A stretch of 64,000 nt of DNA from Escherichia phage JLBYU28. The position numbers and the translations under genes are program-made. The notes under the pieces were generated by a model. It made no database searches, was not told the DNA's origin, and worked only from the letters and a program-made list of their open reading frames with translations. Location of the stretch: sequence record OK272472.1. One strand, 5' to 3'. Positions 54,166-55,615 of the stretch are shown here, piece after piece. How positions within the stretch are numbered: position 1 is the stretch's first letter; every line of letters begins with the position of its first letter.

Positions 54166-54200
54166 TTAAACACATTGTCAATACCCTTTTTAAAACTTTT
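54166..54200. terminator. Hairpin GGGTATT..AATACCC with T-rich flanks (possible bidirectional terminator)
   Basis: 7-bp stem, 12-nt loop, TTTTTAAAACTTTTT on the plus side; loop unusually long. Confidence 0.35.
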
Positions 54201-55615
54201 TACCAGATATAACGGTCAATCATTACTGCTTTGAGCATTACACTAATTGGGTCAAACTTCTCACCACCAAGCAGAGCTTTTAAAGTGGCTGGAGAGAAAC
54301 CAGATACCATTGCTACACCGTTATCCTTAACAGATACTTCGCAAGTACCATTACGGTTTGCTAAGTACCAGAATACCAGTTGTGGCATCTCATATCCAGC
54401 TTTTTTGTACTTACTCTGAATTGCTTCAAAGTTTGTACGACCGTTAGCCCCATCAACCTGATTAAACTCCATATCGGAGAAGATGATAAGCTTACTTGGC
54501 ATATCTTTCTGAGTCAAGTTGTTTCTTTTACCTGTCTCAAGAATACGGTCAAAAGCTGCTTGTAAGCTAGTTGAGCCATATTCAACATGACGCATCACCT
54601 GACGATGACGGTTTCGTAAATCACCACTCAGTTCGATGAAGTGAGGGTTTGTTGAGTAAACCATTAACTCATTCTTAAAGCAACCAGTGTTGCGTTCTGC
54701 TACATACAAGGCGAGGGATACACCAATATCAAGGGCAGTGATTGAACCAAGATTCACCCAAGACATTGAGCTTGAAACATCAGTCATACATAGGATGTTT
54801 TCACCCTCTGCCATCCAGTTTGGTAGTGCTTTCCACTGCTCATTAGCAACATCTGCATTACCATACTTGATAGATTTAATCACATCGTATGGGTAAACAG
54901 CACCAGCGTTAATCTTAGTCTCACCTTTTGATAATGACTCAGTGTAAGCTTTGTAGCGTTCTCCATCTTTACGGTTAAAGAGTTTTTGGTAACGTGCAGC
55001 AGCGAGTGAAGGAATCTTGCTGTAGTCAATCTTACCGAACTCATTAGCAGAGATTTTTTGCTCAACCGTATCAGAAAGTGCAGACAACAGTGTGCGGTAC
55101 TCTTTCTCACTTAAGTTAGCAAACTTGCAGAAACGTTTTACAAACTGTTTGTGTCGTGGTTTTACTCGTGGTAACCACTTGGATGCTAAACCTGCTGTTT
55201 CAGGGTCTAGTAATGCTGCTTCTAAATGCTTAAAGGCATCTGTCTCGAAACGAGTACCTACGAAGATTTTGAAGTCATCAAAACGACCAAGCTCTGCAAT
55301 CTTATCCATAATGCGAAGAACCTGCGTAGGCTCTAAAACTTTATCTTCAATCGCTTGAAGCAAAACAGTTCTGAAGGCTTTACGCTCACCCATACCTTCT
55401 CGTACATCTCGCATATGCAGTAAAATACGAACTGCAACATCAACATCCTCATGCAAAGCTTTGTAGAACAGGTCTGGTAAGATTTCTACATTGCTACGGC
55501 TAGAACCAGCAGCTTTGTAAAAGTCTACAAGAGCAGACATTGATGAAGTATGGTTTACAGCACCATTTTCAGTTCGACCTGCATGAAGGTGCGCATGTTT
55601 AAATAATTCGCTCAT
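54200..55615 (-). CDS. vWA-domain protein with N-terminal helical domain (possible Ro60/TROVE-like architecture)
   Basis: 471 aa; C-terminal MIDAS-like MTDVSSSM and LIIFSDMEF; N-terminal TENGAVNHTSSMSALVDFYKAAGSS segment; family assignment is tentative. Confidence 0.5.
   Translation of the reverse strand: MSELFKHAHLHAGRTENGAVNHTSSMSALVDFYKAAGSSRSNVEILPDLFYKALHEDVDVAVRILLHMRDVREGMGERKAFRTVLLQAIEDKVLEPTQVLRIMDKIAELGRFDDFKIFVGTRFETDAFKHLEAALLDPETAGLASKWLPRVKPRHKQFVKRFCKFANLSEKEYRTLLSALSDTVEQKISANEFGKIDYSKIPSLAAARYQKLFNRKDGERYKAYTESLSKGETKINAGAVYPYDVIKSIKYGNADVANEQWKALPNWMAEGENILCMTDVSSSMSWVNLGSITALDIGVSLALYVAERNTGCFKNELMVYSTNPHFIELSGDLRNRHRQVMRHVEYGSTSLQAAFDRILETGKRNNLTQKDMPSKLIIFSDMEFNQVDGANGRTNFEAIQSKYKKAGYEMPQLVFWYLANRNGTCEVSVKDNGVAMVSGFSPATLKALLGGEKFDPISVMLKAVMIDRYIW

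Follow-up and report, generated by a model that had tools for sequence, protein, structure and literature searches.

We report that in a 64,000-nucleotide (nt) stretch of the genome of Escherichia phage JLBYU28 (record OK272472.1; this whole stretch is referred to as the window) a gene predicted to encode a divergent relative of Ro60 is followed by a set of small structured RNAs that are candidates for its Y RNA-like partners. The window belongs to a Felix O1-type phage (Felixounavirus) and its region 52000-56200 shares 95-96% identity with Felix O1, Mushroom, FO1a and many others. The gene (54200-55615, minus strand; window features given below are on the minus strand unless stated) is an open reading frame (ORF) of 471 amino acids with an ATG start. 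It is the ortholog of Felix O1 ORF42 and of Bas63 gp130 (bas63_0130), with 98% identity to the latter and at the same genomic position. Directly downstream, on the same strand, lies a cluster of 22 co-oriented tRNA genes (49284-54034; predicted using ARAGORN and Rfam) in which four RNA units, here called A to D, are embedded. Ro60 is a ring protein that binds Y RNAs or the ends of misfolded RNAs, and Ro60-Y RNA particles occur in animals, in ~5% of bacteria and in a few phages.

The motifs MTDVSSSM and LIIFSDMEF occupy residues 276-283 and 375-383 of the protein. It matches the Pfam families DUF7788 (residues 275-455; E = 1.3e-42, 146 bits, cut-off 27.1) and DUF2828 (E = 3.4e-28, 99.1 bits, cut-off 29) as well as PHROG 850, 'RNA-binding protein' (E = 1.7e-181), a name also given by RefSeq; a scan of the 471-residue protein against NCBIfam returned nothing. 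In a collection of 5.8 billion proteins 3,028 relatives were detected, many of them on large phage contigs. An alignment with 67 relatives (40-88% identity) shows that the MIDAS (metal-ion-dependent adhesion site) residues, D278-x-S280-x-S282, T348 and D380, are all five invariant, and that the N-terminal domain has eight basic residues with complete or almost complete conservation.

The AlphaFold2 model computed from the same alignment (predicted local distance difference test, pLDDT, 90.3; predicted template modelling score, pTM, 0.89) is all-helical to approximately residue 262 and alpha/beta, i.e. vWA, from residue 273. We delimit an N-terminal all-helical domain, predicted to be a TROVE-like alpha-solenoid, at residues 1 to ~265 (54821-55615) and a C-terminal vWA domain at residues ~270-471 (54203-54808), with a complete MIDAS whose DxSxS codons are at 54770-54784. 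In a Foldseek search against the PDB the best 11 matches are all Ro60/TROVE proteins, aligned over their full length with E-values from 1.6e-8 to 9.4e-7. They comprise human and Xenopus Ro60 (query-normalised TM-score 0.58-0.65) as well as Rsr of D. radiodurans and Ro60 of the Thermus phage phiLo, and the ranks below are occupied by isolated vWA domains only; Ro60 was the top full-length match by both structure-comparison methods. Since the vWA domain makes up only ~190 of the 470 residues, these figures require that the helical domain superposes too. As modelled, a helical-repeat ring domain is followed by a vWA domain and the whole is superposable on Ro60, and on this predicted fold the gene appears to encode a phage protein of the Ro60 structural family that has diverged strongly. 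Even the Ro60 of phiLo, which is confirmed by experiment, can barely be detected when starting from human Ro60 (E = 0.0055), so such divergence is normal among phage Ro60s. The initial annotation, made from the DNA letters alone, had described a 471-residue protein carrying the two motifs, with a helical N-terminal and a vWA-like C-terminal domain, encoded on the 5' side of a tRNA cluster, and this description holds throughout; the comparison of a predicted structure with Ro60, which it had proposed as a check, gave the 11 Ro60/TROVE matches above.

Between the tRNA genes a repeat of the form CAGA-AGACCrw-UUA-CAGCAA ... wyGGUCU-GG occurs in four copies, with A-U to G-C compensation between copies. 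The four units were seen together using a full-length covariance model with N-padded variable loops (R2; its E-values are rough) with the filters turned off. A covarying 7-bp helix, CAGCAA at exactly 10 nt from the end of that helix and a trailing G are common to all four. Unit A (53792-53865; 24.9 bits, E = 0.0014), a short Y-like RNA between tRNA-Glu and tRNA-Met, has the helix AGACCAA/UUGGUCU, the motif UUA-CAGCAA and the trailing G. Unit B (53633-53699; 27.7 bits, E = 0.00043), between tRNA-Met and tRNA-Asn, is likewise short and has the helix AGACCGU/ACGGUCU followed by CAGCAA, a compensatory A-U to G-C change relative to unit A. In the short unit C (53405-53483; filters off, 22.4 bits, E = 0.0039) the helix is again AGACCAA/UUGGUCU, followed by CAGCAA. 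A loose regular expression for a 7-bp complement near CAGCAA gave many chance matches across the window and was dropped.

Unit D (53261-53393; 80.1 bits, E = 1.5e-13) is a YrlA-like RNA located 807 nt downstream of the stop codon of the gene. It comprises, in order, the outer helix AGACCGUU/AACGGUCU, CAGCAA, a V region, a T-arm, a 7-bp acceptor stem capped by AGAU, a D-arm and an A-rich linker; in the minimum free energy structure from RNAfold the tRNA-like module lies within this helix as an 8-bp closing stem (z = -5.0). The core (53287-53338; GAAGG-UUCGAUU-CCUUC / ACUCGAC-AGAU-GUCGAGU / UG / GUGU-AAUGGUA-GCAC) is a circularly permuted tRNA-like structure, i.e. a canonical T-arm, the 7-bp acceptor stem with its 3' strand first and a tetraloop cap, U8-N9 and the D-arm. 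It was the sole match of a strict structural scan of both strands of the 64 kb. Conservation of unit D extends to Bas63 (80.2 bits), Felix O1, Mushroom and Silverhawkium (69-80 bits), and in the last of these (a Mooglevirus; 69.1 bits) the acceptor stem carries compensatory changes. It is not a canonical tRNA: its elements are permuted, it has no anticodon arm, and within 53261-53393 ARAGORN and the Rfam tRNA model call nothing except a 21-nt T-arm fragment. We rejected a pseudo-tRNA or tRNA-dimer junction, given that the two acceptor strands (3' and 5') pair with one another over a loop of 4 nt and that the module with its enclosing helix is conserved in phages without nearby tRNAs. Two weak full-length R2 matches (51491-51632 and 51748-51870) were discarded as false positives; they are adjacent tRNA pairs without CAGCAA, in which the T-arm of one tRNA is combined with the D-arm of the next.

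Related units were sought in 80 viral loci encoding relatives of the protein (numbered with the prefix L), of which 75 are distant (~40% protein identity). The strict structural scanner gave 21 matches, all on the strand of the gene, with none on the opposite strand and none in shuffled sequences. Twelve of these, which come from nine distant loci, overlap no tRNA and have acceptor stems of 6-7 bp. All 12 lie within a helix that varies in sequence by locus yet stays complementary, with (U)UCAGCAA or CCGCAA on its 5' side, G on its 3' side and exactly 10 nt between its outer end and the motif. The first seeds were chosen for paired T, acceptor (AS) and D stems; the outer helix was not selected for, and its six outer pairs are formed in 13/13 full units, with two to four pair types each. 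Compensatory changes are found in all four helices of these 13 units, U8, G10 and A14 never vary and A21 hardly does (the scanner required none of these), and G53-U54-U55-C56...A58...C61 is invariant as well. A MAFFT alignment of full units (A3) had gaps inside the stems and was unusable for structure, and a model from loop-trimmed seeds (R1) recovered the units with false outer helices where the V region is long; it was replaced by alignment A6 and model R2.

Over 1.0 Mb, R2 gave 138 matches at E <= 1, all 138 on the strand of the gene. Strong full-length units lie directly beside the gene in L009, L013, L027, L044 and L077, and dozens of short units (40-85 nt) that consist of helix and motif without a tRNA-like core flank the gene in loci devoid of tRNA genes; units occur in two to six tandem copies, and the interiors of the short ones are A-rich and unconserved. 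Of the pairs in the outer 7 bp of 90 distinct units, 96% are Watson-Crick, and every one of the four pair types is found at the variable positions. The motif is CAGCAA in 78 of these units and CCGCAA in 10, and the family consensus is WWAA|AGRWUNN|NUW|CAGCAA ... AAAA|NNAWYCU|G. Pairing reaches 93.8% of the cells in the 13 full units (39-46% with slid partners) and 83.6% in the 90 distinct units (33-45%); such figures are partly circular for matches of the covariance model, because its search favours pairing. A unit was detected in 56 of the 75 distant loci and a tRNA-like unit in 18. Altogether 71 of 96 units are positioned within 400 nt of the gene compared with 7.5 expected (approximately ninefold; P about 2e-57), 39 of the 96 are upstream of it, and 27 carry the tRNA-like domain. 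The family thus covaries, has tRNA-like features and is tightly linked to the gene. As a separate observation, the acceptor-stem cap loops of units in L059 (7563-7618) and L072 (7843-7901 and 10527-10582) start with N-CCA (GCCAAUU, ACCAACUAU and CCCAAU), like the 3' end of a tRNA. The resemblance hints that tRNA dimers were the source of these units, and by analogy with the RNase P cleavage reported for M. smegmatis YrlA such loops might possibly be cut to give a two-piece tRNA-like RNA (PMC4201824).

The bacterial RNA that unit D most resembles, YrlA, is a Y RNA with V, T, capped AS and D elements and, near its 5' end, a GNCGAA(N0-1)G motif as putative Ro-binding site; it is encoded within ~4 kb of Ro60 on the same strand (PMC4201824). 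In unit D the same order of V region, T-arm, capped acceptor stem and D-arm is enclosed by a stem of both ends, the tRNA tertiary nucleotides are kept, and unit D is encoded beside the Ro-like gene on the same strand; the 7-bp acceptor stem of M. smegmatis YrlA also recurs consistently in the units. YrlA (RF02553) is the best Rfam family at several units, with 39.2 bits in L019, 38.9 bits over the full model in L072 and two weaker matches (31.4 and 28.7 bits; E down to 4e-5), all below the gathering score of 69 bits. The short units, among them A-C, resemble YrlB and other short Y RNAs in holding a putative protein-binding module without a tRNA-like domain; they have no sequence similarity to YrlB, and the relation of YrlB to YrlA parallels that of the short units to unit D. 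Chen et al. (2014) searched only genomes annotated with a TROVE protein, a search that yielded 22 phages, and warned of tRNA dimers as false positives (PMC4201824).

The protein differs from Ro60/Rsr of known structure (1yvp, 2i91, 2nvo, 9nfa) in being 11-16% identical and ~60 residues shorter, and in falling under DUF2828 and DUF7788 instead of TROVE in Pfam, with RNA binding predicted. The closest phage precedent is the Ro60 of phiLo, which binds two adjacent Y-like RNAs (Yrl1/Yrl2; 9kop, 9l5y) and forms complexes with the host PNPase (PMC12135203). It differs from the window protein in having a TROVE annotation. The phiLo RNAs have their motif, CGAA, within an internal bulge and are encoded upstream of the gene, and its RNA binding and PNPase complex come from experiment, whereas the system described here is known from sequence and modelling.

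In some relatives the module is present in the leader of the gene itself. In phage KVP40 (NC_005083; L085) R2 found no unit in the vicinity of the gene, and the copy in the 5' untranslated region (UTR) of KVP40.0300 (4794-4884, minus strand) was found by eye only. It has the helix, CAGCAA and G, and its helix GACAUU/AAUGUC encloses the Shine-Dalgarno sequence and the start codon; judged from this arrangement it is a candidate autoregulatory operator. The units of L014 and L016, 40 nt long, stop 11-16 nt short of the start codon, and the tail of the L014 unit, GGAG, serves as ribosome-binding site. The position of the module over the gene's own ribosome-binding site in some relatives suggests that the same recognition is put to a second use, namely autoregulation.

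The resemblance of this protein to Ro60 has been published. A PhageMaP preprint noted that Bas63 gp130 is structurally Ro60-like and counters the Ppl defence, that its deletion gives tiny plaques and complementation rescues these, and that gp130 alone rescues T7 on Ppl hosts; its authors identified no RNA partner and only speculated that some annotated tRNA genes might be Y RNAs (PMC11482910). In Bas63 the same protein (98% identity) is encoded upstream of a tRNA cluster as in the window. There the RNA units lie between the tRNAs and not in annotated tRNA genes, and the DNA encoding unit D and the long-stem element discussed below (14749-15023 in MZ501086; L083) is annotated as the opposite-strand hypothetical proteins bas63_0137, which covers unit D, and bas63_0138. 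A comparable plus-strand ORF of 76 amino acids is present in the window (53166-53396), and all three ORFs are probably spurious because the RNA structures there are conserved. No paper on an RNA partner for this protein family was found in the limited literature searched, and neither the RNA family nor its linkage to the gene appears to have been reported previously.

Taken together, we favour the reading, to which we assign a probability of roughly two in three (0.68), that the window encodes a divergent Ro60-family protein with units A-D as its cognate Y RNA-like partners. The protein would consist of a ring-forming helical domain followed by the vWA/MIDAS domain. Early promoters of the sigma-70 type would drive units A-D together with the tRNA cluster, and tRNA-processing enzymes would probably cut the units out: they start a few nt after one tRNA and end a few nt before the next, and with this embedding RNase P and the 3'-processing enzymes would release them with the tRNAs. 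The protein would most likely recognise the 7-bp helix (5'-AGRWUNN / NNAWYCU-3'), the single-stranded CAGCAA 10 nt from the helix end and the G after the 3' strand. By analogy with Rsr-YrlA and phiLo RYPER-like complexes, the tRNA elbow (T-loop/D-loop) of unit D and its 7-bp acceptor-like stem might engage host factors that recognise tRNA, candidates being RNase P, modification enzymes, an exoribonuclease such as PNPase and a tRNA-directed defence factor, and the particle could act as a tether or decoy. We infer physical binding, RNA processing and a cellular target, with binding supported only indirectly, through the genomic linkage of a conserved RNA.

Several results weigh against this reading. 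At the level of the protein, TROVE (PF05731) gave no match at E <= 1 in a hmmscan search that returned only DUF7788 and DUF2828, PDB sequence searches with the protein and with the 67-member profile found no Ro60, and hhalign of the family profile with human Ro60 (its sequence validated against 9nen_A over residues 1-538) aligned only the vWA part, residues 265-381, with 34% probability. The Ro60/TROVE assignment in the initial annotation, which had been offered with a caution on its weak N-terminal motif, stands for the full-length fold and not for the sequence profiles, and the caution was justified. As to the RNAs, RF02553 has no match in the window at E <= 1 and none on unit D at E <= 10; where it aligns to other units the agreement covers only the T/AS/D core and leaves the outer helix and the motif unmatched, and GNCGAA(N0-1)G is absent, its place being taken by CAGCAA at the fixed 10 nt with the trailing G. 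With core-only agreement, sub-threshold scores and no match on unit D, the units are YrlA-like as a working description and not members by the Rfam criterion; the YrlA-like RNA anticipated by the initial annotation is nevertheless there, as unit D has the YrlA element order within a closing stem and related units give the best sub-threshold RF02553 matches. Model R2 detected no unit in 19 of the 75 distant loci, the equal wobble counts in the outer helix (six G.U, six A.C) leave its strand unsettled, and to this comes the partial circularity of the pairing figures. Finally, T7, which lacks these RNAs, is rescued by gp130, so the known phenotype needs no phage RNAs, and the RNAs may regulate or redirect the protein and not be essential cofactors.

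The leader copies raise the question of whether helix and CAGCAA are mainly cis-acting sites on the mRNA or a precursor, e.g. an autoregulatory operator of translation or signals for processing or stability, and not stable trans-acting Y-like RNAs; the protein may then still bind them. The KVP40 module around the Shine-Dalgarno sequence and start codon, the L014 and L016 units immediately before the start with GGAG as ribosome-binding site in L014, and the 39 of 96 units upstream of the gene all fit such sites. We nevertheless consider this unlikely as the principal role, since in the window and its relatives the units are found between tRNAs, downstream of the gene and behind separate promoters, since units come in two to six tandem copies, and since the elaborate tRNA-like domain of 27 units would be superfluous for an operator. 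Cis- and trans-acting roles are not mutually exclusive.

That the protein is a vWA/MIDAS factor for protein-protein interactions, acting against defence without binding RNA, and that the nearby structures are debris of the tRNA cluster, left by decay or recombination of tRNA dimers, and processing spacers unrelated to it, would agree with the restoration of T7 growth on Ppl hosts by gp130 alone. It would also agree with the fact that tRNA-tRNA junctions can produce a T-arm with a D-arm after it, as in the false R2 matches at tRNA dimers, and with the N-CCA loops of some acceptor stems, which fit a tRNA-dimer origin. This is difficult to reconcile with units that flank the gene even in loci without tRNA genes, with their approximately ninefold enrichment within 400 nt, with helix covariation and fixed motif spacing across phages that share ~40% protein identity, and with a whole-protein match that is specific to Ro60 and not to generic vWA proteins; we regard it as improbable. 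Hardly any weight is given to the idea that the repeats act as DNA, in the form of phage-specific cassettes serving as promoter, as terminator or in recombination, comparable to the promoter-stem-loop cassettes that T4-type phages have. The outer helix, nearly all Watson-Crick and with no excess of G.U over A.C, would form in DNA too, and the units are tandem repeats within plastic genome regions; against this, 138/138 matches are strand-specific relative to the gene, the motif is unlike a sigma-70 promoter and no T run follows the helix, the T and D loops are strand-specific RNA features, and the repeats are confined to the neighbourhood of the gene instead of being spread through the 64-kb window.

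Apart from units A-D the cluster contains a long-stem RNA element (53118-53261), an inverted repeat in which a 22-bp perfect stem encloses 100 nt. Its arms (53118-53139 and 53240-53261) are 100% complementary, exactly as claimed by the initial annotation; the T-arm fragment that it had placed at 53290-53340 is also real, being part of the T-arm/capped acceptor stem/D-arm module 53338-53287, and the covarying hairpins mentioned there are the four units with their common helix and CAGCAA. In Silverhawkium the long stem differs by two compensatory changes from T-A to C-G, by a paired deletion of 1 nt and by two G.U pairs, with a diverged interior, and since it is kept through compensatory changes we regard the element as a transcribed structured RNA. 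The interior has a small hairpin, also kept through compensatory changes, with the loop CUUAAGCAA; its form CUU(A/U)AGCAA resembles a degenerate copy of the CAGCAA motif. The element may serve as a fifth partner RNA or else be processed by RNase III at this site, and its place in the Ro60-like system is uncertain.

Promoters were predicted by a consensus scan and are pattern matches only. A sigma-70-like promoter (TTGACA-18-TAAAGT; 55656-55685) is located upstream of the Ro60-like gene, and two more (54181-54153 and 54090-54061, together 54061-54181; 10/12 matches each) lie between its stop codon and tRNA-Pro, where they are likely to drive the tRNA/small-RNA cluster. A 12-bp hairpin (54158-54189) directly after the stop codon overlaps the -35 element of the first of these two; no T run follows it, and it might be a terminator or a processing site.

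The tRNA cluster itself varies among the phages. Compared with Felix O1, Mushroom, Bas63 and Silverhawkium, JLBYU28 is without tRNA-Tyr and tRNA-Asp (53545-53621, spacer 53114-53544), and the alignment shows a deletion of ~236 nt in JLBYU28 between the similar 3' parts of tRNA-Asn and tRNA-Asp; tRNA-Tyr is annotated as a pseudogene in two relatives. A G+C-rich hairpin, GAGAGGGCUAUUUAGCCCCUCCC (53500-53540), is positioned after tRNA-Asn and before unit C, and an identical hairpin stands after tRNA-Asp in Felix O1 and Mushroom. At 52463-52541 the Rfam tRNA model gives 31.2 bits (threshold 29) with no ARAGORN call; this matches the position of the tRNA-Arg(UCU) annotated in Bas63 and Silverhawkium, and the window may therefore hold 23 tRNA genes, not 22. 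In more distant phages, a group I intron (RF00028, 71.5 bits; L019, 11696-11922) lies ~4 kb downstream of the Ro60-like gene of an uncultured phage. On a 153-kb contig with a distant relative (L086, 3367-7493) genes for PcfJ, a phosphoribosyl pyrophosphate (PRPP) synthetase and a NAPRTase (NAD salvage genes) precede the Ro60-like gene, so that it is located among accessory genes with a possible role in counter-defence.

In summary, the observation made at this locus is confirmed and its interpretation supported, such that the system in the window would represent a new variant of the Ro60-Y RNA system, in which we infer both binding and function. A wider conjecture, which we hold only tentatively and consider somewhat doubtful, is that DUF2828/DUF7788 proteins and RNAs with the helix and CAGCAA form a large unrecognised branch of Ro60-Y RNA systems in tailed phages (Felix O1-like, KVP40-like and many uncultured). 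Its recognition code would be unlike that of canonical Ro60, its tRNA mimics would serve as decoys or adaptors against Ppl or tRNA-targeting nucleases, and the leader hairpin would act as autoregulator. The data also flag annotation errors, as the Bas63 RNA units are annotated as small opposite-strand ORFs. Finally, they provide a concrete predicted RNA partner, and a likely recognition module consisting of the helix, CAGCAA and the trailing G, for a 'domain of unknown function' family that has more than 3,000 detected relatives and one member of which, Bas63 gp130, is published as acting against the Ppl defence.

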